The position numbers were made by a program, and so were the translations under genes. Under the pieces are notes generated by a model. That model searched no databases. It was not told where the DNA came from and worked only from the letters and a program-made list of their open reading frames with translations. Of a DNA stretch of 64,000 nt, positions 7,333-54,300 are shown in pieces. The stretch is taken from NCBI GenBank assembly GCA_031441465.1, contig JANOEP010000010.1, positions 96,001 through 160,000 of the forward strand. Reading direction: 5' to 3'. Every line of letters starts with the position of its first letter. Within the stretch, counting starts at the first letter, position 1. Origin of the DNA: a bacterium (GTDB lineage: Bacteria; Krumholzibacteriota; Krumholzibacteriia; LZORAL124-64-63).

Positions 7333-7413
7333 GAGAGGCTCCTTGATGTTGGCCGCGTTCCAGGGCGCGTCTCGCACCGGGTGTGGATCCATGGGTTTGA
7401 GCCACGGATGTTA

Positions 7414-7424
7414 ATTATATCACA
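7414..7424 (-). promoter_or_regulatory. Extended -10 promoter for the DegT operon
   Basis: Minus strand TGTG-A-TATAAT (perfect TGnTATAAT) in the AT-rich divergent intergenic region, ~80 bp upstream of the DegT ATG. Confidence 0.7.
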
Positions 7425-7605
7425 TACTTTGTCCCACAACCAGTGCCAAGATGATAGCCACCAGTCGCGCATTCTCCTAGGACGTTCCTGCCAAACCCGG
7501 CTGGAGAAAGACCTTGCATGGGCGGCAGATACGGGCTATTTCCAGCGGAGTTACGAGCCCGCTGCCGTGTCCTTGGCAAGGATGATGCCGCAGCGAGGTT
7601 CCACG

Positions 7606-37482: not shown

Positions 37483-38021
37483 GCGCCCACCGTCGCGCGC
37501 TGGCGTTGCCAGGTGACGTGGCGCGTCAGGGCGCGGCGGGCCGTGACCTCCGGCGCCGACTGGTCCGTGCGCACCCGAAAGTCGGCGGCGCGGGCGTAGA
37601 GAGGCCGACGCACGCCATCGAGCGCCCTGGCCGCGGCCCAGTCCCCCGCGGCCAGCAGGGGGCGGTCGTCGCCGGCGTCCGCCGCGGCGGCCAGGCGGGC
37701 CTGCAGCGTCTCCCAGGGCGCGTCCAACCAGATCACGCTGCCCCGGTCGCGCAGCAGCGCCACCGCCGCGGGCGTCGTGACGAGCCCGCCGCCGCAGGCG
37801 ATCACCAGATCGGCCTCCGGCGGCAGGGCGTCCAGCGCCGCGAATTCGGCGGCGCGGAAGCCCGCCTCCCCCCGCGCCCGGAACAGCTCGCCGATGGTGG
37901 CGCCCTCGCGCCGCACCACCTCGCGGTCGAGATCGATCACCGGCAGCAGCGCCCGCTCGCCGAGCAGTCGCGCCGCCGTGCTCTTGCCGCTGCCCATGAA
38001 GCCGATCAGGGAGATCCACAC
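37479..38021 (-). CDS. aroK: Shikimate kinase
   Basis: GTG after GGAGG. 'GFMGSGKS', 'DLD', 'GEAGFR', 'ACGGG', 'RPLL', 'RRPLY'. Confidence 0.92.
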   Translation of the reverse strand: MWISLIGFMGSGKSTAARLLGERALLPVIDLDREVVRREGATIGELFRARGEAGFRAAEFAALDALPPEADLVIACGGGLVTTPAAVALLRDRGSVIWLDAPWETLQARLAAAADAGDDRPLLAAGDWAAARALDGVRRPLYARAADFRVRTDQSAPEVTARRALTRHVTWQRQRATVGA

Positions 38022-38055
38022 GTGCCGCCTCCAACCCGCTGGGATGCCGGCGGCG

Positions 38056-38084
38056 AGCATAGACAAAACACGGGCGTCGGGCAA
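38056..38084 (-). promoter_or_regulatory. Sigma70 promoter for aroK-rsmD-coaD
   Basis: TTGCCC (38084-38079), 17 bp, TATGCT (38061-38056), ~35 bp upstream of the aroK GTG. Confidence 0.55.
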
Positions 38085-38102
38085 GCCTTGCCCGACGCCC
38101 GT
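38064..38102 (-). terminator. Intrinsic terminator after the sigma54 response regulator
   Basis: Perfect 16-bp inverted repeat ACGGGCGTCGGGCAAG / CTTGCCCGACGCCCGT (38070-38102), followed on the minus strand by GTTTTGT. Confidence 0.75.
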
Positions 38103-38142
38103 TCGGCTCGACGGCCCGGAATCGCTCCGGCGAACCGGCCGC

Positions 38143-39642
<1,500 letters not shown>

Positions 39643-39788
39643 GCATCGCTCCTTGGGTCGTGCCGCGCGGGCGGCCGTGCGTCTCCCGTCCGTCCCACTG
39701 GATATCGGTCAGATTGCAAGACACTTGAGCACGAAGGTGCAGGATTCCGCACCAGCCGGCATCCGGCCGGGGCAGAATGCAACGGCGG

Positions 39789-40985
39789 CTACACGGTGAG
39801 GAGTTCGGCGACGGGAGTCCCGGCCGTGTCCAGGACCAGCGGCAAGTCGATGCGGAACTCGGCGCCGCCGTCCGGCCCGGCCCCGACCTGGATGACGCCC
39901 CCGTGCGCCTGGACGATGCGCTGGACGACGGGCAGCCCGAGGCCGGTGCCGCCCGTCTTGGTGGTGACGAAGGGCCGGAACAGCGTGTCCCGCACCTCCG
40001 GTGCGATGCCCGGCCCGGTGTCCGCGACGACGAGCCGGCAGACGGTGTTGTCGTCGTCCAGCGTCGCGCTCAGGGTCAGGGTGCCGCGGCCGCCCATCGC
40101 CTCGCACGCGTTGAGCGAGAGGTTCAGCAGCACCTGCTGCATCTGCTCGGGGTCCATGAGCACCAGCAGGTCGTCAGGTTGGATCTCGGCCACGATGCGC
40201 AGGCCCTCGCGCCCCTGCTGGTGCATGCGGACCTGGAAGGCGAATTCCTCGAGGAAGGGCTTCAGTTCCGACAGCTGGCGCACCGTCGGGCGCAGCCGCG
40301 CGTAGGCGAGGAAATCGCTGACGATGCGGTTGACCCGCTCGCTCTCCTTCAGGATCAGCGCCAGCAGACGCTGTTCCTGCCCGCCGACCTTCAGTTCCGC
40401 GGCCAGCAGTTCCGCGCTGCCGCGGATGCTGCCCAGGGGGTTGCGGATCTCGTGGGCGATGCTGGCGGACAGCTCGCCGATCGCGGCCAGCCGGTCGTTC
40501 TCGCGCATGCGTTCGCGCAGGGCGTTGACCTCGCTCAGATCCTGGAAGATGGCGACGGCGCCGGCGGGGTTGCCCGCGTCGTCGCGGACGGGGTGGACGC
40601 TGATCCCGGCCGGCAGCCGGCGGCCGTCGGGCAGGGTGAGCAGGATCTCGCGGCGCGCCACCGTCTCGCCGCCGGCCAGCACCTGGACCACGGCGCGCGC
40701 GAACTCCCGGCGCCCCTCGTCGAAGGCGTCGGCCACGGTCTGGCCGGTCAGCGCCTCCTCGCTCACGCCCAGGATGCGCGCCGCGGCGGGGTTGGCCCGC
40801 TGGATGACGCCGTGCCGGTCGGAAATCACCAAGCCGCTGCCGAGGTTGGTCAGGACGTGGCGCAGGTCCGTGCGCAACTCCCGCTCCCGGGTCAGGGCCG
40901 TGCGTGCCTCGGCGCGCGCGCGCGACAGGCGGCGCAGGAGCACCGCGCACACGACCAGCAACGTCCCCGACAGCACCCACGACAT
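39789..40985 (-). CDS. PAS-domain sensor histidine kinase (PilS/NtrB-like)
   Basis: N-terminal TM, PAS ('ANPAAARILG'), H-box 'AHEIRNPL', N-box 'NLSLNA', 'DTGPGI', 'GTGLGL'. Confidence 0.94.
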   Translation of the reverse strand: MSWVLSGTLLVVCAVLLRRLSRARAEARTALTRERELRTDLRHVLTNLGSGLVISDRHGVIQRANPAAARILGVSEEALTGQTVADAFDEGRREFARAVVQVLAGGETVARREILLTLPDGRRLPAGISVHPVRDDAGNPAGAVAIFQDLSEVNALRERMRENDRLAAIGELSASIAHEIRNPLGSIRGSAELLAAELKVGGQEQRLLALILKESERVNRIVSDFLAYARLRPTVRQLSELKPFLEEFAFQVRMHQQGREGLRIVAEIQPDDLLVLMDPEQMQQVLLNLSLNACEAMGGRGTLTLSATLDDDNTVCRLVVADTGPGIAPEVRDTLFRPFVTTKTGGTGLGLPVVQRIVQAHGGVIQVGAGPDGGAEFRIDLPLVLDTAGTPVAELLTV

Positions 40986-41032
40986 GAACGGCCTCCCCGC
41001 GGCGCCGCGCCCCGCACGCGGCAGCCACCGGA

Positions 41033-41455
41033 TTATCGGCCGGGCGTGCCGGAACTTGACCCGCCAGGGCGGGCGACGACCGGCGCCGCGTCGTAGAGCA
41101 GCAGCGGGCCGAGCCGCTCCGTCAGCTTCGGCCCGATGCCCTTGACCCGCCGCAGGTCCGCCTGGTTGCGGAACGGCCCGCCGCGCTCCCGTTCGGCCAC
41201 GATGCGACCGGCGAGCACGGCGCCGACGCCCGGCAGGTAGGTCAGGGTGTCGGCGGTCGTGCGGTTGACGTGGAAGGGCGGCGCCGGCGGCTCGGGCGCG
41301 ACCTCCTCGACAGCCAGGGCCGGCAGCAGCCCGTCCAGGAAGCCGGGATCGCGCCAGGCGCCGTCGGCATCCACGAGCAGGGCGTGGCGGACCCAGCGGC
41401 CGGCCAGCACCGCGGCGAACAGCAACAGCAGGCCCAGGGCTTCGCGTCGGGTCAT
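41033..41455 (-). CDS. comEA: ComEA family helix-hairpin-helix DNA-binding protein
   Basis: N-terminal TM; 'HVNRTTADTLTYLPGVGAVLAGRIV', 'GPF...DLRRVKGIGPK'. Confidence 0.85.
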   Translation of the reverse strand: MTRREALGLLLLFAAVLAGRWVRHALLVDADGAWRDPGFLDGLLPALAVEEVAPEPPAPPFHVNRTTADTLTYLPGVGAVLAGRIVAERERGGPFRNQADLRRVKGIGPKLTERLGPLLLYDAAPVVARPGGSSSGTPGR

Positions 41456-41537
41456 GGGGGCTCCGGCCGGCGCGCGCCGGCGGCGGGGAGGCGGGCCGGG
41501 GCGCGGGAGTCGCCCGGGTGGGATCAGAGGGCGACGG

Positions 41538-43397
41538 TCAGCGCCGCAGGGTCCACTGCAGACGCCAGCGCATCTCGCGCCCCGGGGCAGGCGCCAGCGG
41601 GGTGACGGCCGTGGTGTCGCCGGTGAGATTGCGCAGTTCGAGGCCCAGGTCCGCGCCGACCAGGCGGAACGAGCCCAGCAGGTGGTGCAGGGTGCGGGCG
41701 GGTACGTCGGTCCCGCCGCCGGGGAGCCAGGGATCCGACATCGCGCCGCGGTGCTCCAGGACGTAGCCCAGTTCGAGGATGCCGTCCTCGTGGAAGGCGT
41801 GGCGCTCCCAGAACACATTCAGCACGGCGGACCGCTCCGGCGGCAGGGCCAGCGGCGATCCGGCGCCGACGTCGGTCCCGCGCCAACTCGCCGTCGCCTC
41901 CCAGCGCAGCAGGCCGGCCAGCCGGACGGCCCGCGCGACGGCGACGGTCGCGGCCCAGCCCTCGAGTTCCACTTCGTTGGCCCAGCGACCGCTGCCCGCG
42001 CCCGGAGCGGCGGCGCGCCAACCGATGCCGTCGCGGAGCCGCCGCCACGTCGCGTCGAAGCGGACGGCGTGCCCGGCGAAGCGGCCGTCGGTGGCGAGCG
42101 TCGCCTCGGTGAGGTCCTCCCAACCCAGGCTGCGCGCGGGCAGCATGACGACGGTGCGGCTCCCGGAGAACACGCGCTCGGAGGTGTACAGCTCGTCCAG
42201 GCGCGGTGCCCGGCCGCCGCGGCTCAGCCCGAGCCACAACGGCCAGGCGGTGGGGCGCCAGGTCGCGCCGGCGTGCGGCGACCAGCCAACGTGTTCGTGC
42301 CAGCGGCCGGCACACTCGAGCCGCCAGTCGGGCGGCAGGCCGCCGTCGCGCGGCGACTCCCAGGAGAAGTCGCAGACCCCGTCGCGGCCGCTCTTACCGA
42401 CGCGCGAGGTGTCCGCCCCCGCCCAGGCCGCGGTCCCGGACGCATCGTCGGCCAGTCGCCAGGACGCCACCTGGGCGCCCAACCGCCAGGCGGCGCGGCC
42501 GAGTTCCAGTCGGGCGCCGTCGCGGGCCGTCTCCACCTTGCGGTCGTCGTCCCCGATCTCCCGCACCACGTCCACGCGCGAGGACCACAGGCCGGCGCTC
42601 CATTCGCCACCGCCCCACGGTTGGCGCCAGTGCGCGGTGGTCCGGTCCCCCCACGTCTCCTGACGCTGCGCGCCGTACCGGGGCAGGTCGGTCAGATGAC
42701 GACGGTCGCGGGCGTAGCCCACGACCAGGGTCGACGTGTCGGGGAAGCGGCGGACCAGGGTCGTGCGGGTCAGGCGCGATCTGCTCTCGGCGGCGCCGGT
42801 GCGCGTGCTCCCGTCTTCGGGCAACTCGTCGAGCAGTTCCTCGAAATCGAAACGCCCCTCCCAAGGCGCCTGCTGGGTGCGCAGGGAGAGCCGTCTCAAA
42901 TAAGTGTCGCCGGCCCCCTTGAAGAAGGCGCTGTCCAGCAGGCTGCCGCCGGTATCCGCCGGGCAGGATTCCCAGGCGAGCCGAGGCGAGCCGCCGCCGC
43001 CCGGGTCCTGGGCGAACCCGACCCGCGCGAGGTCCGCGCCGGCCAGCGACCACGTCCAGGGATCGTCGGCCCAGCGATGGCCGAGACCCAGCGGCAATCC
43101 GTCCCGGACGGCCGACGGGACGCCGTCGTCCCCGGGCAGGTGCAACAGCAGCAGGGGCGCGCCCGGCGCGCCGTCGCGCACCGCGACCAGCGGCGAACTG
43201 CGCCCCAGCAGGTCCATGACATCGCCGGCGAAGGGCACCCACGGCGTGCGCGAACCGGGCGGCGACTCGGCCAGCGCCGCCGAGCGGACGCCGGCCGGCG
43301 CGACGGCCTGCGTGAAGGCGCACGAGGCGGCGATGGCGTTCCACGCGAGCGCCGCCGCGCCGTACCGCAGCAGCAGGCTCAAACGGCCGCGCGTCAT
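41538..43397 (-). CDS. Large outer-membrane beta-barrel (putative porin/TonB-receptor-like)
   Basis: Signal peptide, Trp-rich alternating strands, 'RAPRLDELY', 'LRNLTG', terminal strand 'MRWRLQWTLRR'. ATGA overlap with hutI. Confidence 0.65.
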   Translation of the reverse strand: MTRGRLSLLLRYGAAALAWNAIAASCAFTQAVAPAGVRSAALAESPPGSRTPWVPFAGDVMDLLGRSSPLVAVRDGAPGAPLLLLHLPGDDGVPSAVRDGLPLGLGHRWADDPWTWSLAGADLARVGFAQDPGGGGSPRLAWESCPADTGGSLLDSAFFKGAGDTYLRRLSLRTQQAPWEGRFDFEELLDELPEDGSTRTGAAESRSRLTRTTLVRRFPDTSTLVVGYARDRRHLTDLPRYGAQRQETWGDRTTAHWRQPWGGGEWSAGLWSSRVDVVREIGDDDRKVETARDGARLELGRAAWRLGAQVASWRLADDASGTAAWAGADTSRVGKSGRDGVCDFSWESPRDGGLPPDWRLECAGRWHEHVGWSPHAGATWRPTAWPLWLGLSRGGRAPRLDELYTSERVFSGSRTVVMLPARSLGWEDLTEATLATDGRFAGHAVRFDATWRRLRDGIGWRAAAPGAGSGRWANEVELEGWAATVAVARAVRLAGLLRWEATASWRGTDVGAGSPLALPPERSAVLNVFWERHAFHEDGILELGYVLEHRGAMSDPWLPGGGTDVPARTLHHLLGSFRLVGADLGLELRNLTGDTTAVTPLAPAPGREMRWRLQWTLRR

Positions 43398-44722
43398 CGC
43401 GACACCAACCGGCGGCCGTCGCGCCACACCTCGCGCACGGGATTGCGCCCGGCGTGGTAGGGCACCAGGCGGTGGTCGTCGACGTCTAGCACCAGGAAGT
43501 CGGCGGCGCGGCCCGGCGCCAGCGAACCGACTTCGTCCTGGAGACCGAGCGCCCAGGCGGCGTTGATCGTGCAGGCGGCCAGCGCCTCGGCCGGCGTCAG
43601 GCGCATCTGGGTGCAGGCGATGGACTGGATCAGGGGCACCGACGCGATCGGGCAGCTGCCGGGGTTGAAATCGGTGGCCAGGGCCACGGCCACGCCCGCC
43701 TCGATCATCGCCCGCGCCGGCGCGTAGCTGCGCAGGCCCAGCGAGAAGACCGTCCCGGGCAACAGCACCGCCACGGTCGGCGCGCCCGCCAGGGCGGCGA
43801 TGCCCGCGGCGTCGATGCGGATGAGGTGGTCCGCCGAGTCCGCTCCCAGCCGCGCGGCCAGCGCCGCGCCCCCGAACGGCTCCAGTTCGTCGGCGTGGAC
43901 GGTCGCGCGCAGGCCGAGTTCCTGCCCCCGTCGCAAGATCGTCGCGGTCTGTTCGAGGTCGAAGACCGTCGGCTCGCAGAAGACGTCCAGCCGCTCGGCC
44001 AAGCCCTCGCCGACGATCCGCGGCAGGATCTCGTCGCAGACGAGCTTGACGTAATCCCCACGGCGGTCCCGGTACTCGGGAGGCACCTCATGGGCGGCGA
44101 GGCAGGTGCGGACCACCCTCAGGCCGACCGTGCCGGCCGCTTCCCCGGCGATGCGGAGCATGCGGGCTTCATCATGATATGACAAACCATATCCGCTTTT
44201 AATTTCTATGGTTGTTGTTCCATGTTCAAGTACTTCACGAAGTCGCGCCACGGTCAGATCCAACAAGTCGTCATCGCTGCGCGCTCGTAGGTCCCGCACC
44301 GAGGACTGGATGCCGCCTCCCGCTGCGGCGATCTGCAGGTAGGTCTCGCCGCGTAGGCGCCGCTCGTACTCGTCCTGCCGGGTCCGGCCGAACACGGCGT
44401 GGGTGTGGGGATCGACCCAGCCGGGCACGACGCAGCGGCCGCCGGCGTCGTGGACGGCGCGCGGTGCGCCGCATCGGGCCAGCAACGCCGCTTGCGGTCC
44501 GTAGGCCAGCACGCGCCCGCCGGCCACGGCGAGCGCCGCCCCGGCGACCAGGCCGGGATCGTCGAGGTCGGCGCCGCGTCGGGGACCGGCGCTCGCCGCT
44601 CCCGGGCCTGGTCGGCCCGGCGCATCCAGCGTGCACAGCTGGCCGATGTTCTGCACCAGCAGGTCCGGCCCCGCCGCCAGGGCGGCGTCGTTTTCCGTCA
44701 CGACGCGGTCGATCGTGGTCAT
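43394..44722 (-). CDS. hutI: Imidazolonepropionase
   Basis: 'PGWVDPHTH', 'YLQIAAAGGGI', 'GTTTIEIKSGYGL', 'DVFCE', 'HADEL', 'ALATDFNPG'. Alternative start GTG at 44728. Confidence 0.95.
   Translation of the reverse strand: MTTIDRVVTENDAALAAGPDLLVQNIGQLCTLDAPGRPGPGAASAGPRRGADLDDPGLVAGAALAVAGGRVLAYGPQAALLARCGAPRAVHDAGGRCVVPGWVDPHTHAVFGRTRQDEYERRLRGETYLQIAAAGGGIQSSVRDLRARSDDDLLDLTVARLREVLEHGTTTIEIKSGYGLSYHDEARMLRIAGEAAGTVGLRVVRTCLAAHEVPPEYRDRRGDYVKLVCDEILPRIVGEGLAERLDVFCEPTVFDLEQTATILRRGQELGLRATVHADELEPFGGAALAARLGADSADHLIRIDAAGIAALAGAPTVAVLLPGTVFSLGLRSYAPARAMIEAGVAVALATDFNPGSCPIASVPLIQSIACTQMRLTPAEALAACTINAAWALGLQDEVGSLAPGRAADFLVLDVDDHRLVPYHAGRNPVREVWRDGRRLVSR
44168..44245. other. AT-rich synonymous patch inside hutI, with inverted repeat and promoter-like motif
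   Basis: 24/70 G+C over 44171-44240. 23 of 26 consecutive codons end in A/T. GATATG-N6-CATATC at 44176-44193. TTAAAA-17-TATCAT on the minus strand (44202-44174). Confidence 0.85.
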
Positions 44723-44724
44723 CG

Positions 44725-49498
<4,774 letters not shown>

Positions 49499-49513
49499 TC
49501 ACTCCAGCGGCGG

Positions 49514-51355
49514 TTAGAAGGACTGCAGCAGAGCGACGTGCAGCTTGGCGTCCTCGAAACGGAACGCACCCGGAAAGCCGATCGCCAGGGAGATCTCGCC
49601 GGCGGCCGAGGTCGTCATCAAACCGAGCCCGTAGCCGCGCAGATGGCTGGTGGCCGTGATCCGTCTCGTCGCATCCGCCGGGTCGGCGGTGGTGGTGCGA
49701 ACGTACCCCAGGTCCAAGAAGGTGTAAACACGCGAGCGGTCCGGACGTCCCCAGCGCAGTTCGAACGCCGCCGAGGCCACCCGCTCGCCGTGGAACTGGT
49801 CCTCCAGGTAGCCGCGCAGGCTGCGGGCGCCGCCGAGCCGGTACTGCTCGGTGAGGGGGGCGCCGGCCGCGTCGCCGCGCAGATCGCGGAACAGACCCGT
49901 CACCGCCGTGCTCGTGCGCGGTCCCCACCAGCGTTCGACGCCCAGATCGGCCTCGACCAGGGTCTGCCGCACCTCGCCGGCCGACGCGCCGGGAACCGCC
50001 CCGTCGCCGGTGCGCAATCCGGCGCCCCGGCGGGCCGATTCCAGGGCGAACGCCCCCGACCAACCGTTGCTCGCCGGATCGCCGCGCCGGCGCAGGATTC
50101 CCGCCCGGGTGCGCCAGCGGGACGTGCTCGACCAGGCGCCGGTGGCGTAGGTGCTGCGGTCGCGGCCCAGACCGAACTCCACACCCCAGGGACCGGACAC
50201 CGGCAGGCGCAGGCGGCCGTCGAGATGGAAACGCGTGGAGACGTTCCGTTGGACCTCGTGGCCGACGGTCAGGTCCGCATCAAGCGGCGTGCCGCCGATG
50301 AGCGGTTCGCGCCAGCCGATTTCGAGCCGGGACCGTTCGCGGCCGTCGTCGCTCCAGAGCAAATCGAGGCCCCGCCCGCTGCCGGCGAGGTTGGCCAGGT
50401 GCAGGTCCACCTGACCGCTCAGTCGCGAGGCCCCGTCCACGCCGGTGCGGCTCAGTCCGAGCATCACCGACGCGCGGTTCGGCCGCGGCTTCAGACGCAC
50501 CGGCCAGTGCACGCCGACCGCGTCGGCTTGCCCGGTCGCGTAGACGACCGGCGCGCCGACCTCGGCGTAGATGTCCCGCAGCTGCAGGCGGCGGCGCGCC
50601 GCTCCGAGTGACGACTCCCGGAATCGTGAACCGGGCGCCAGTCGCGCGGCCCGCGCCAGGAACGCCGACCCGCGTCCGCCGGGCAGGTCGGAGGTCGTCG
50701 GACCGAAGGCCACGGCGGGACCGGGCACGAGGATCGCCGTGACGTCCAGCAGGGGCTCATCGTCGCGGATCGCGACGCGCCGCACGATCCAATGCGCGAA
50801 GGGATGGCCGGCCTCCCCCGCCGCCTGCAGCAGGCCCGCGACGGCGCGCCGCCAGACGTCGGCGCCGACGGGGTCGCCGGGACGAGGCAGCCAGCGGGCC
50901 AGGGCGGCGCCGCGACCGGCGAAGTCGTCGCCCTCGACCTCCACCCGCCCGTGACGGTGGAGCGGCCCCGGCGACACGACCAGCGCCTGCCCGCTGTCGC
51001 GGCTCGCCGGCGCCACACGGCAGGCGAGGTACCCGCGCGCGAGCCAGCGATCGCGCAGCAGGGAGGCCGACGGCCGTCGTGCGGCGCCGTTGGTTGCCGC
51101 AGGATCGGCCGGTCGTGAAGGGTCGGCCAGCCAACCGGGAAGGGAATCCGCCGCCGCGCCCGTCGCCGCCACGACACCCGGCGGCAGGGAGGCCAACCAG
51201 TCCGCGTCTTCCAGGAGCCAGTTCTGCAGACGCCGGTCGCCGGCCGTCGCCGCCGAGAGACGCACCGCGGTCGGCGCGGCCGCGACGGCCGTGCTGCTAC
51301 CCAGGAACGCGGCCAGCAAGGCGCTAGAAACGAGCCGTCGACTCCAGTCGGACAT
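49514..51355 (-). CDS. Omp85 (BamA/TamA) family outer-membrane protein with degenerate POTRA domains
   Basis: Signal peptide, POTRA-like segments ('ARGY', 'GHPFA'), 'NLAGSGR', lid motif 'LGGARSLRGY', 'FLDLG', 'GYGLG', C-terminal Phe. Confidence 0.88.
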   Translation of the reverse strand: MSDWSRRLVSSALLAAFLGSSTAVAAAPTAVRLSAATAGDRRLQNWLLEDADWLASLPPGVVAATGAAADSLPGWLADPSRPADPAATNGAARRPSASLLRDRWLARGYLACRVAPASRDSGQALVVSPGPLHRHGRVEVEGDDFAGRGAALARWLPRPGDPVGADVWRRAVAGLLQAAGEAGHPFAHWIVRRVAIRDDEPLLDVTAILVPGPAVAFGPTTSDLPGGRGSAFLARAARLAPGSRFRESSLGAARRRLQLRDIYAEVGAPVVYATGQADAVGVHWPVRLKPRPNRASVMLGLSRTGVDGASRLSGQVDLHLANLAGSGRGLDLLWSDDGRERSRLEIGWREPLIGGTPLDADLTVGHEVQRNVSTRFHLDGRLRLPVSGPWGVEFGLGRDRSTYATGAWSSTSRWRTRAGILRRRGDPASNGWSGAFALESARRGAGLRTGDGAVPGASAGEVRQTLVEADLGVERWWGPRTSTAVTGLFRDLRGDAAGAPLTEQYRLGGARSLRGYLEDQFHGERVASAAFELRWGRPDRSRVYTFLDLGYVRTTTADPADATRRITATSHLRGYGLGLMTTSAAGEISLAIGFPGAFRFEDAKLHVALLQSF

Positions 51356-54300
51356 CGTGCTGCCACCCCCTCTCCCCCAACCGGCGGCCGAAGTAGCCGG
51401 CGGTCAGGGTCAGGGTCGCCGACGGGGTCCAGGCCAGGCGGGCCGCCGCTTCGACGTTGCCTCCCGGATAGGGGTAGAAGTAGGGGCGCAGCGCGCCCGG
51501 CGGTTCGTCGGCCTCGACCCACGACCAGCGCAGTTCGGAATATCCCGTCCAGCGCCGCTCGAACCGCAGCCGGGCTTGCGGCTTCAGGCCCCAGTCGCGC
51601 TGCCGGACGCCGGAGACGAGGTCGCGGCGCTCGGCGCGGTCCAGCGCGATCACCAGCTCGTTGCCGGGCGACGGCCGGCGGCTGCCTTCGACCTCCCAGC
51701 CCGTGGTCAGCGAATCGTAGGGGCGGTTGCCGGCGACCGCCTGCTCGCGGTTGGCCCGGGTCTCGTCGGTGCGCGTGGCGCGCAGGCGCAGGCTCGTGCG
51801 CTCGTCGACGTTGAAGGTCAGCGTTCCCTGGTGCAGGCGGCGCAGGCGTTCCTCGGGATGGGTCGCGTACTGGCGGTCGAGGCCCTCGTCGAACTCGAAG
51901 CGCCCGCGCAGGTCCCAGCGCCGCAGGTGCCGCAGCAGCCACAGCTCCTGCCGCAGGGAGATCTCGCCGAGCACCGTGTCCTGCTCGTCGAGGATCCGCG
52001 CGGGCGCCAGGCGCATCAGCCCGCCCACGTCGTCGGTCCGGCTGCGCCCGCGCACGGTCGCGCGGGTGACCGACTGCCAGGCGCCCCAGACGCGGTCCTT
52101 GCCGAGCACGGCGAAATCCTGCCGCCAGGAGAGGTCCGCGCTCACCTCGGTGGTGGCGATCAGCGAGTCGGTGCCGACGGTCACCACGTCGAAGTCGCCC
52201 AGGTCGTAGCCGACGAAGGCGCCGCTCTGGTCGTAGTCGCCCTGCCGCAGGCCGACGAAGAGGATCTGGCGGTCGAGCACCTCGCTGCGGCTGCTGTCCA
52301 CGGCGTAGACCAGGCCCCAGTCGCTGCCCGTGCGTTCCCAGCGCCCGTGCAGGTCGATCCGCGCCAGGCGTGTGGTGAGGTCCGGCCCGTCCGGGACCTC
52401 GACCCGCCGCAGCGTGCCGTCCGCGGTCAGGCGGACGCCGCCCAGCGCCGGCGTGCCGAGCCGCCAGCGCGTGGTGCGGCTGTCGCGATCACGCTCCCAG
52501 TGACCGGCGCGCAGGCTGTCGGACAGCCCGCGCTCGAAGCTCGCGCCCCAGGCCCAGGCGGCGCGGGCCGGCGCCTCCAGACCGGCGGTCCAGCGGCGGC
52601 GCTTCGCACCGGCGGTCCGGCCCGCGGCCGCCGCCGCGTCGGCGTGTTGGGCGCGCTCGTAGGCGAAGGAGGGCCGCGCGTAGGTCGCGTCGACGCCGAT
52701 CGCATGGCCCTGCTCGCGCCGCAGGACATCCAGGGGATCGGCCAGATCCTCGCTGCGCGCCTCCTGCCAGTGCGAGGCGCCGTCCAGGCGGCCCCAGGCC
52801 CAGCCGGCATCGGCGCCGGCGCGCCGGGCGTCCAGGGACGTCCCGTGGGACAGGCGGCCCCACTGCCCTTCCAGGCGCAGGCGTCGCGTCCCGCCGCCCG
52901 AGGTCAACGAACCCGTCGCCGACGACTCCACATCGCGCGCCTGCAGGAAGCCCGCGCGACGAGCGCGGTCGCCCAGACCCCAGCGCTCGTAACGGAAGAG
53001 ATCGCGCGCCAGCTGGAACGGCGCGAAACGGGCCCCGAGATCCTCGTGCTTCGCCTGCAACGCGACGACGCCGACGCGACGCCCGCCCGGTTGCCAGGCG
53101 CGTGCGCCGAGGTCCAGCGCGGCGCGCAGGGCGCCGCCCGCGTCGTCGCCGTCGTCACGGCCGGAGAGGGCGTTGGCGTCGAGGCTGCTCGCGTCCCACT
53201 CCAGGGACAGCAACGGGCGGCGCGGGTCGCCGAGCGTCGCCAGGAAGGTCGCCAGCCGCTGCGACGTCGGGGCGGGCAGCAGGCGGCCGATGCGGTAGGA
53301 TCCGCCCCCGGCGCCGCGGTAGGCGTAGACGGTCCGGCCCAGCGCCGTCAACGACGCGACGCCGTAGTCGCCCAGCCCGGGGCCGGCGTCGTAGAACTCG
53401 ACCAGGTGATCGCCGGCGAGCGTGTCGTGGACCGCCACCTGGATGCCGCCCAACGATTCGAACCGGTAGTCGCCCGCACCCGCCGCGACGACCGTCAGGC
53501 CCGGGGACACGGCCGGCTGATCGCCGGCCGCGGCGAGGACCGCGCGGTCGGCTTCCGACAATTCGCCGGCCCGCAGGCGGGTGGGGTCGTCCTGCTCGCG
53601 CACCAGCCGCATCGTCAGCGCCGCCGTGCGCCCGCCGAGCAGACCGACGTCGACGGCGGCCTGCGCCTGCGCGCCGGACACGGTGCGGGAGTACGGCCCC
53701 TCGCCTTCTTCGAACTCCACGACGATTTCCGAGTCGGCGGTGATCAGGCGGCGGTAGGTGAAGGTCACCGTGCCGCGGACGTAGTCGACGACGTAGTCGC
53801 GGTCGGAGCCGCGCGTCATCGTCTGGCCGTCGAGGCGCACGCGCTCGCTGCCGGCGACCAGGAAGACCCCGGACCCGCCGGCGCCCAGCTGGTACGGGCC
53901 CTGGTTCGCCTCCTCGCCGCGGAGCTGGAGCGTGCGGTACAGCCCGCGCGGCGAACCGGCCATCGCAGCGACGCCGGCGGCGACGTCGGCGGTGCCCGGC
54001 CGGGCCTCCAGCACGAAACCCTGCAGCTTGCGCCGGTAGTTCCCGAATTCGGTGCCGCCGCGTTCGGCGACGAAGTCGCCCAGGACGGCGTTCCAGCGCG
54101 GCGCGGTCAGCTCCACGCGCACGCGGTCGATGTCGCGCAATTCCTCGGTGTTCCCCTCCGGGACCACCGGCAGGTTGTCGTCCGACAGCGCCGCCCTCAC
54201 CGAGATGGTTTCGGTGAGACGGCCGGAGATGTCCAGGCGGAGATTCTGGTCCACGCTGAGGTCGCGGCGGTTGCCCGAGGCCATGCGCACGGATTTGCTG

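Follow-up and report, generated by a model that had tools for sequence, protein, structure and literature searches.

An AT-rich synonymous island inside hutI of a GC-rich Krumholzibacteria genome and its possible role as a rare-codon throttle

Codon-dependent regulation is exemplified by the bldA/TTA control of Streptomyces, and a cluster of rare Arg codons reportedly tunes the synthesis of a restriction endonuclease. Recognition by composition rather than by a strict motif is typical of the AU-rich entry sites of RNase E and RNase Y and of the intragenic AT-rich promoters that are silenced by nucleoid proteins. The closest published concept to the locus described here is that of position-specific, synonymous conserved rare-codon clusters (CRCCs; Chaney et al. 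2017, PMC5438181). The locus in question is an island of 26 AT-rich synonymous codons (44168..44245, minus strand) inside hutI, the gene for imidazolonepropionase, and it lies in a window of 64,000 nucleotides, by which the whole stretch of DNA analyzed is meant, corresponding to positions 96001-160000 of contig C10 in G000, a Krumholzibacteria metagenome-assembled genome (MAG) of an uncultured bacterium (3,492,914 bases in 74 contigs, 69.6% GC). The island is inherited, keeps a base composition of its own and is present or absent as a unit across the phylum. Its favored explanation, given a probability of about 0.4, is a stretch of AU-rich rare codons that is kept by selection and throttles HutI synthesis within a translationally coupled operon.

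The island spans residues R136-E161, numbered on a 418-residue query (24 is to be added for the full HutI protein), and has a GC content of 0.36, against 0.69 and 0.73 in its 150-nt flanks and 0.72 in the whole of hutI. Only 3 of its 26 codons end in G or C, compared with about 91% in hutI, giving a GC content at third codon positions (GC3) of 0.12. A first-pass annotation, made from the letters of this DNA, had reported the string of codons with 23 of the 26 ending in A or T, a G+C count of 24/70 over 44171-44240 (0.343), and an intact frame across the island encoding RLREVLEHGTTTIEIKSGYGLSYHDE, all of which were confirmed. Its claim that this was the strongest compositional anomaly seen in any coding sequence of the window also stands, as the island is the most extreme intragenic AT patch of the whole MAG. 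Genome-wide, 70-nt windows have a mean GC of 0.696 (sd 0.071), and 375 AT patches (60 nt, GC <=0.42) are present; 13 of these lie inside an open reading frame (ORF) with flank GC3 >=0.80, the hutI island being the most extreme. The milder atypical codons that were traced to ~44290 (GAT, TTG, TTG, GAT) are present in G000 as well, unlike in its relatives, which carry mostly G/C-ending codons just upstream of the island.

In terms of codon usage, the geometric-mean relative usage of the island is 0.075 (ln -2.59), which is below the lowest 26-codon window (-2.48) in 2033 crude ORFs, and the lowest-scoring windows among those ORFs look like wrong-frame artefacts. The codons concerned are scarce throughout the genome: ATA makes up 0.4% of its synonymous set, GTA 0.8%, CTT 1.0%, TCA 1.2%, ACA 1.6% and ATT 1.7%, and 23 of the 26 stand at 0.4-23%, most of them at 0.4-10%. 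The run of codons rarer than their synonymous average is a rare-codon cluster by the usage of G000 itself. At the protein level, the secondary structure around the island in the AlphaFold model consists of a helix (126-142), a strand (145-151) and a second helix (158-175); the island takes in the last part of the first helix, the strand, which is barrel strand 2 (TTTIEIK), the loop after it and the beginning of the second helix. At the level of the message, the eight weakest-folding 80-nt windows of the hutI mRNA all overlap the island, with folding energies of -9.9 to -13.8 kcal/mol where the average is -33.4 (sd 8.4). No unusual fold of the island was found relative to shuffled sequence (z-score -0.69), no Rfam model matched 43300-44800 at E values up to 1, and blastn-short returned no second copy of the island in the genome.

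The first-pass annotation proposed mapping reads across the island, an assembly chimera being the last of its four ranked causes. Logan contigs of two sequencing runs (6024 and 8888 bases) cross 44168-44245 undivided and match the full 2-kb stretch without a single difference, their depth being flat at about 30 and 21. As these runs may be the MAG's own source, they test only the assembler. Two further runs held only short pieces of relatives, for instance 44 nt over 44168-44211 with 5 differences, and were not used. The patch is, in addition, carried by five other assemblies, which together with the spanning contigs excludes the chimera.

The same five sequences answer the alignment of related hutI DNA that had also been proposed, and the outcome is that the AT state is kept in congeners. 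In four congeneric genomes (L002-L005) and one metagenome contig (L114), the patch has a GC3 of 0.23-0.38 against 0.90-0.97 in the rest of hutI (5/5). Within this genus sample G006 had no hutI match, and the G005 contig over the patch was left out. All genomes compared are MAGs with crude, GC3-based gene calls, and sequences from kin are not independent. The patch is also found in two related genera, with a GC3 of 0.50 vs 0.94 in genus g14 (L006) and 0.42 vs 0.76 in genus g12 (L159), and both carry the same first codons (cgt-ctt-CAG-gaa-ATG...gaa). The patch peptide is 0.73-0.81 identical to family members outside the genus and 0.58-0.65 identical to the 7 low-GC hutI products sampled. The island is thus native to hutI and inherited. 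As a separate observation, the hutI of G005 is split over contigs C316 and C375, which overlap at residues 160-205, one contig beginning just where the patch ends on its 3' side; a break in the assembly graph caused by strain variation in a fast-turning patch would fit this.

What is inherited is a composition and not a sequence. Within the genus, silent third-position differences amount to 0.24-0.48 in the patch vs 0.08-0.29 in the rest of hutI, and as the silent sites differ more in the patch than elsewhere, no fixed sequence is conserved. Parsimony on a hutI tree built without the patch columns, comparing 19 patch columns with 280 others (ranges are those of two tie-break rules), gave 7-13 G/C-to-A/T changes on 3-9 G/C sites in the patch and 62-70 on 255-274 in the rest of hutI, that is 1.4-2.3 vs 0.24-0.26 per site. 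Changes from A/T to G/C occurred at 0.7-0.9 per site in the patch vs 1.2-1.8 outside it, and A/T-to-A/T and G/C-to-G/C changes at about 0.4-0.6 vs 0.33. As the counts are small and the sequences are kin, these figures are indications rather than tests.

The shift is not confined to silent letters. Patch GC at codon positions 1 and 2 (GC12) is 0.42-0.48 in the genus vs 0.50-0.60 in patch-less family members, and relative to 17 patch-less family members the genus shows a GC12 difference of -0.087, lower than in any other 26-codon window (the others have a mean of +0.013, an sd of 0.018 and a minimum of -0.033). Amino-acid replacements in the patch lean toward AT too. The GC12 shift implies that the force acts on nucleotide composition, beyond codon rarity, and the island is accordingly held at its own AT-rich compositional equilibrium at all three codon positions. 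As related species keep the AT codons, something acts on the silent letters. The earlier idea of a second nucleotide-level signal laid over the conserved GTTTIEIKSGYGL motif therefore survives in its general form, the signal being inherited and at a separate equilibrium, while none of the four causes ranked beneath it holds as stated.

Across the phylum, most GC-rich hutI genes are ordinary at the patch site, and the AT state is best followed through the nine-codon core TTTIEIKSG (44192..44218, minus strand), whose typical AT form is ACA ACW RTW GAA RTW AAA AGC GGW. This form is found in scattered lineages, namely family f1 (genera g10 and g18), families f3, f5, f6 and f9, and MAG L065. When the AT-ending codons among the nine core codons were counted in 119 hutI genes with a remaining GC3 >=0.75, 86 genes had 0-1 such codons (76 expected under a binomial), 18 had 2-4 (42 expected) and 15 had 5-7 (0.4 expected). 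On a FastTree of 120 HutI proteins (16 AT, 95 GC and 9 intermediates left unscored), at least 10 changes of state are needed; shuffling of the labels gave 15-16 changes (first 10 of 200 shuffles). Both states occur within single genera: g10 includes G015 (AT) as well as G116 and G117 (GC), g47 includes G051 (AT) and G050 (GC), and in g26 the patch of G034 alone is AT-rich (GC3 0.46), unlike that of the 4 congeners fetched. The core is therefore two-state, either GC or AT, and is all-or-none and labile across the phylum.

The state belongs to this hutI site whatever its neighbors are. The AT form is found with dinG and a ~620-codon gene, with hutH, or with hutU and a tetratricopeptide repeat (TPR) gene around it, a recurrence under different neighbors that implicates the gene itself; many patch-less hutI genes likewise follow hutU or hutH and precede a TPR gene. 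The patch region is the lowest attainable G+C of the gene in 59/136 hutI and falls within the lowest 2% of windows in 82/136. Equally AT-permissive windows of the neighboring genes stay GC-rich, such as one in the helicase gene whose floor is 0.24 and whose observed GC is 0.65.

The gene that carries the island occupies 43394..44722 on the minus strand and has 442 codons plus a stop. Its product matches TIGR01224 with 437.2 bits (cut-off 298.15), aligning profile positions 4-375 of 377, and contains the Pfam Amidohydro_1/3 domains. The AlphaFold model is a TIM barrel plus sandwich with a pLDDT of 91. Residues H82, H84, H252 and D327 are invariant in a 13-sequence alignment and are presumably the metal ligands of the barrel (HxH on strand 1, a later His, and an Asp on strand 8). 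Upstream is a gene for a DinG/YoaA-like helicase (44725..47445, minus strand; Pfam Helicase_C_2 and DEAD), which matches the NCBIfam DinG/YoaA models with scores under their cut-offs and whose stop codon at 44727-44725 is followed 2 nt further on by the hutI ATG. Downstream, the TGA of hutI overlaps the ATG of a gene of ~620 codons (41538..43397, minus strand, start probably the ATG at 43397) in an ATGA arrangement. This gene has no family match (0 Pfam or NCBIfam matches at E values up to 5) and is kept behind hutI in family members with the patch present or absent. Judging from these junctions, hutI is predicted to be translationally coupled on both sides in the string helicase-hutI-~620-codon gene-comEA.

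The four genes of that string are mutually unrelated, and their order is kept in several family members; elsewhere in the phylum, hutI is preceded by hutH or hutU and followed by a TPR gene. In G000 itself, hutU and two hutH-like genes are located on other contigs. The only terminator-like site found on the minus strand between 38000 and 53000 is a strong hairpin at 38070-38102, with 15 pairs, 11 of them G-C, followed by GTTTTGT, and this hairpin may close a long minus-strand gene string.

A second conserved intragenic AT island was seen outside the window, in a TPR-repeat gene at C10:213624-213723, minus strand (loci L154-L158). Its core, caa-tcw-tct-...-tat-ttt-acn-gga, has a GC3 of 0.44-0.71 vs 0.88-0.94 in the rest of the gene in 6/6 genus genomes, with TAT TTT kept in all six, and its attainable-GC rank is 39 of 232, not the lowest of its gene. 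Within the 64-kb window, the only other spots with <=30/70 GC are 107-212 and 7386-7465, which look non-coding, AT-rich and promoter-like, the former containing TGGCAC...TCAATATGATAAC. Elsewhere in the genome, at C39:70668-70709 on the minus strand, an open frame contains a His/Asp repeat (DHPHDHPHDHPHDHHHDHDH) that is spelled mostly with the T-ending codons CAT and GAT within a GC-rich frame. A genome scan for short dips in third-position GC, in any frame, gave 101 hits that were mostly wrong-frame artefacts and was not used for counts; it missed hutI because the flank windows overlap the long island.

In the favored reading, the island would be a cis-acting element of the hutI message, kept AT-rich by a persistent local force. 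Its 26 rare codons together would form the sole AU-rich, weakly folding stretch of a GC-rich mRNA, on which ribosomes would move more slowly, or endonucleases would gain access to the message, or both, and in either case HutI output would be reduced or adjusted. RNase E/G and RNase Y are both encoded in the genome. A throttle of this kind would matter because hutI, wedged between a 2-nt gap and an ATGA overlap, has neither a promoter of its own nor a free ribosome-binding site. If several adjacent sites must act together, all-or-none behavior of the core is expected. The reading supposes that the force is selection, that it acts on RNA rather than on DNA, and that its effect is to throttle. 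A preference for A on the sense strand is seen as a weak trend in the core, in 12/15 lineages (p 0.064).

A number of observations weigh against a throttle acting on the message. The GC12 shift is not predicted by pure tRNA-limited pausing and fits any selection on nucleic-acid composition, including that of DNA. At free wobble sites the A:T ratio is 61:57 in patches vs 268:346 elsewhere (p 0.13), and with A and T near-equal there is no clear sense-strand signature. Genes for all needed isoacceptor tRNAs are present, nearly all single-copy, and codon rarity therefore need not mean slow decoding. None of the listed runs that contain this DNA is recorded as RNA. The close genera represented by L007 and L120 have the same operon without the patch, which makes a requirement of enzyme folding unlikely. 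In a leave-window-out, amino-acid-corrected test, the patch window is ordinary in 72 other high-GC hutI genes (a fraction of 0.60 of the other windows scores no higher) and in 46 mid-GC hutI genes (0.89), which makes a pause tied to the HutI fold unlikely; the window is low only in 7 low-GC hutI genes (0.018), 4 of them from Acinetobacter.

A universal HutI rare-codon signal had also been considered, as the patch was at first the lowest window in every GC class, and was dropped when the signal disappeared after correction in the high-GC and mid-GC groups; the first per-column rarity result was an artefact of reference counts from which the patch, and no other window, had been excluded. At the patch position, the low-GC genes L094, L096 and L097 (Acinetobacter) and L059 (Evansella) contain unusually many G/C-ending codons (GAG, AAG, ACG), a hint from few and related sequences that some low-GC lineages might preserve rarity and not AT content. 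Sites for CsrA or Hfq, which GGA codons and AAnAAnAA-like words respectively were taken to represent, were likewise rejected: CsrA is present, a PF17209 search of this 96.8%-complete genome gave no Hfq, and the codons and words in question are not shared by the patch-bearers.

The main rival to the message-level throttle, although itself rather unlikely, places the function in DNA: the island would be an AT element situated where the protein permits the lowest G+C, serving as a strand-opening site, a low-specificity site for a nucleoid protein, or a weak sense or antisense promoter. This rival takes in the first of the four earlier proposals and the nucleoid-protein part of the second. The conservation of composition rather than sequence, the shift in GC12 and the near-equal use of A and T, as a property of the duplex predicts, all suit such an element, as do its place at or near the lowest attainable G+C of the gene in the hutI counts given above and its rank among just three spots of <=30/70 GC in the window; an all-or-none state fits a property with a threshold. 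The island of G000 includes a sigma-70-like TTAAAA-17-TATCAT (44174..44202, minus strand), as reported in the first pass, which matches at 9 of 12 positions with a weak -35 and is the sole such match in 38000-53000. Its -10 hexamer, TATCAT, is identical to that of two tRNA promoters, and its spacing fits the organism's own promoters. Those promoters, seen upstream of the G000 tRNA genes as canonical TTGACA-17-TAnnnT (with TATCTT, TATATT or TATCAT, e.g. C10:39817, C37:17435 and C58:23639), consist of two hexamers in GC-rich spacers, showing that no AT island is needed and that, for tRNA genes at least, this FCB-group lineage works without the Bacteroidetes-type promoter. The TTAAAA-17-TATCAT match is also private to G000 and probably a by-product of the AT-richness, being present in 1/13 patch-bearing orthologues and absent at that place from the 5 other congeners and from the 7 patch-bearers outside the genus; L114 has a different sigma-70-like match elsewhere. 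The k-mers of 491 AT patches outside crude coding sequences, among which the word TCAATAT is enriched, revealed no promoter architecture.

An internal promoter for downstream genes, the first of the four earlier proposals, is further contradicted by the independence of the AT state from those genes: the order dinG-hutI-~620-codon gene-comEA is the same in relatives with and without the patch. A link through the TPR genes that follow hutI in L026, L065 and L008 was examined and rejected, as these are unrelated to the downstream gene of the window and are also found behind patch-less hutI. The GC-rich state of equally AT-permissive windows in the neighboring genes likewise counts against an element that merely settles where the protein allows it. 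The second proposal, a chromosome-level site, does not hold as stated either. The inverted repeat GATATG-ACAAAC-CATATC (44176..44193) is present as annotated, but it occurs once in a scan of the genome, follows from Tyr and Gly codons (GGA-TAT and TCA-TAT-C), and keeps its arms in 3/6 genus sequences (G000, L003 and L005; lost in L002, L004 and L114). The palindrome AAGTACTT (44228..44235; GAA GTA CTT) is also where it was said to be, with 20 copies in the genome; it is private to G000, the other genus sequences reading ATA CTC, ATA CTT or ATG CTT at that place. The cumulative GC-skew minimum of C10 is at ~60 kb, ~80 kb away from the patch at 140 kb, and the contig contains no DnaA-box-like words, which together with the poorly kept inverted repeat speaks against a replication origin, an unwinding element or a dif-type site.

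A local mutational bias without any function, in which the most AT-permissive stretch of the gene drifts to an AT equilibrium and remains there, for instance through more breathing and faster deamination, is improbable but accounts for several features. In the patch, G/C-to-A/T change is 5-9 fold faster than elsewhere, whereas A/T-to-G/C change is slower by a factor of only about 2; the effect extends to every codon position, the location is AT-permissive, and positive feedback could give rise to two states. Such a bias would have to explain why conserved islands are found only in hutI and one TPR gene of the genome, despite many equally permissive windows, and why the TPR island, at rank 39 of 232, is not at its own gene's lowest floor. 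The similar rates of A/T-to-A/T and G/C-to-G/C change inside and outside the patch indicate that the overall rate is not much raised, and at least 10 switches at one site of one gene suggest a gene-specific cause. More improbable still is the footprint of a selfish element, that is, a co-conversion scar or a cleavage-evading recoding left by the homing endonuclease of an intein or intron. The site is the most conserved motif, its GC-state DNA is nearly identical across many lineages, the AT state is sporadic, labile and two-state, and conservative amino-acid changes occur inside the patch, all as such a footprint would have it. Among the matches listed, from 196 hutI-bearing genomes of 208 in the phylum, there is no hutI split at the motif on one contig; two longer HutI-like proteins were found and neither has an intein domain, which is a weak test, and a literature search for an intein in imidazolonepropionase returned no relevant result. 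Homing endonucleases that target coding sequence were shown to cut even where every wobble position of the site had been altered (PMC3159444), and silent recoding would therefore protect poorly. The AT state is, moreover, renewed within the genus and not decaying. A short recombination tract from a low-GC hutI that persists as a passive relic, the third of the earlier proposals, is together with the chimera barely credible: sharp edges and AT-rich content would fit either, yet the peptide RLREVLEHG...SYHDE is nearest to that of family members, and the tract is common to three genera and at equilibrium, while the chimera is refuted by the assembly evidence given above.

The wider meaning of the island lies in the treatment of silent sites, which are usually regarded as near-neutral or as tuned gene-wide, and which here, over a sharply bounded run of 26 codons in at least 3 genera, stand at the opposite extreme of the genome's codon usage. 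If selection is the cause, the locus offers an unusually clean natural case for measuring the effect of such an island on yield, folding, mRNA decay and operon polarity. In practical terms, islands of this kind mimic foreign DNA, chimeras and promoters in GC-rich MAGs and break assemblies, as in the hutI of G005, and codon 'optimization' of such a gene would erase the island. It is conceivable, although quite unlikely, that the locus belongs to an undescribed class of heritable, reversible two-state switches at silent sites on conserved motifs of GC-rich bacterial genes. In these, an all-or-none shift of ~10-26 neighboring codons to A/T would activate some cis-regulatory function at the DNA or RNA level (strand opening, nucleation of a nucleoid protein, or control of endonucleases or ribosomes), and lineages would repeatedly acquire and lose it (for hutI, 10 or more times within a single phylum), possibly by exchange of short segments. 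A search of the literature did not find a description of such islands in GC-rich bacteria.

In comparing the island to the systems mentioned at the outset, it is like the rare-Arg cluster and bldA/TTA control in that its rare codons would limit or condition the synthesis of one protein in a biased genome. Those cases involve one codon type and one tRNA, whereas the hutI island involves about 15 codon types and no special tRNA that is missing or duplicated. It would resemble the RNase E and RNase Y entry sites and the silenced promoters in that an AT/AU tract stands out in a GC-rich background, and it differs from AT-rich promoters silenced by nucleoid proteins in that the native promoters of G000 are not AT islands. 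The likeness to CRCCs is closer: the hutI island is interior to its gene, consists of about 20-26 codons each rarer than its synonyms, keeps rarity or composition and not codon identity, and sits within a structural domain, flanked by small motifs (helix, strand 2, loop). It also departs from them. Its conservation in the wider HutI family is not clear when amino-acid content and self-counting have been allowed for; co-occurrence in homologues takes the form of an AT state in three related genera and in 15/119 GC-rich hutI genes vs 0.4 expected, but after correction the means of the groups are ordinary. The island behaves as all-or-none with frequent changes of state, it is shifted at codon positions 1 and 2 too, so that composition is involved, and, as the lowest window of its genome, it is far more extreme than typical CRCCs. 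To the concept of conserved rare-codon clusters, the hutI island thus adds two-state behavior and a shift at non-silent positions.

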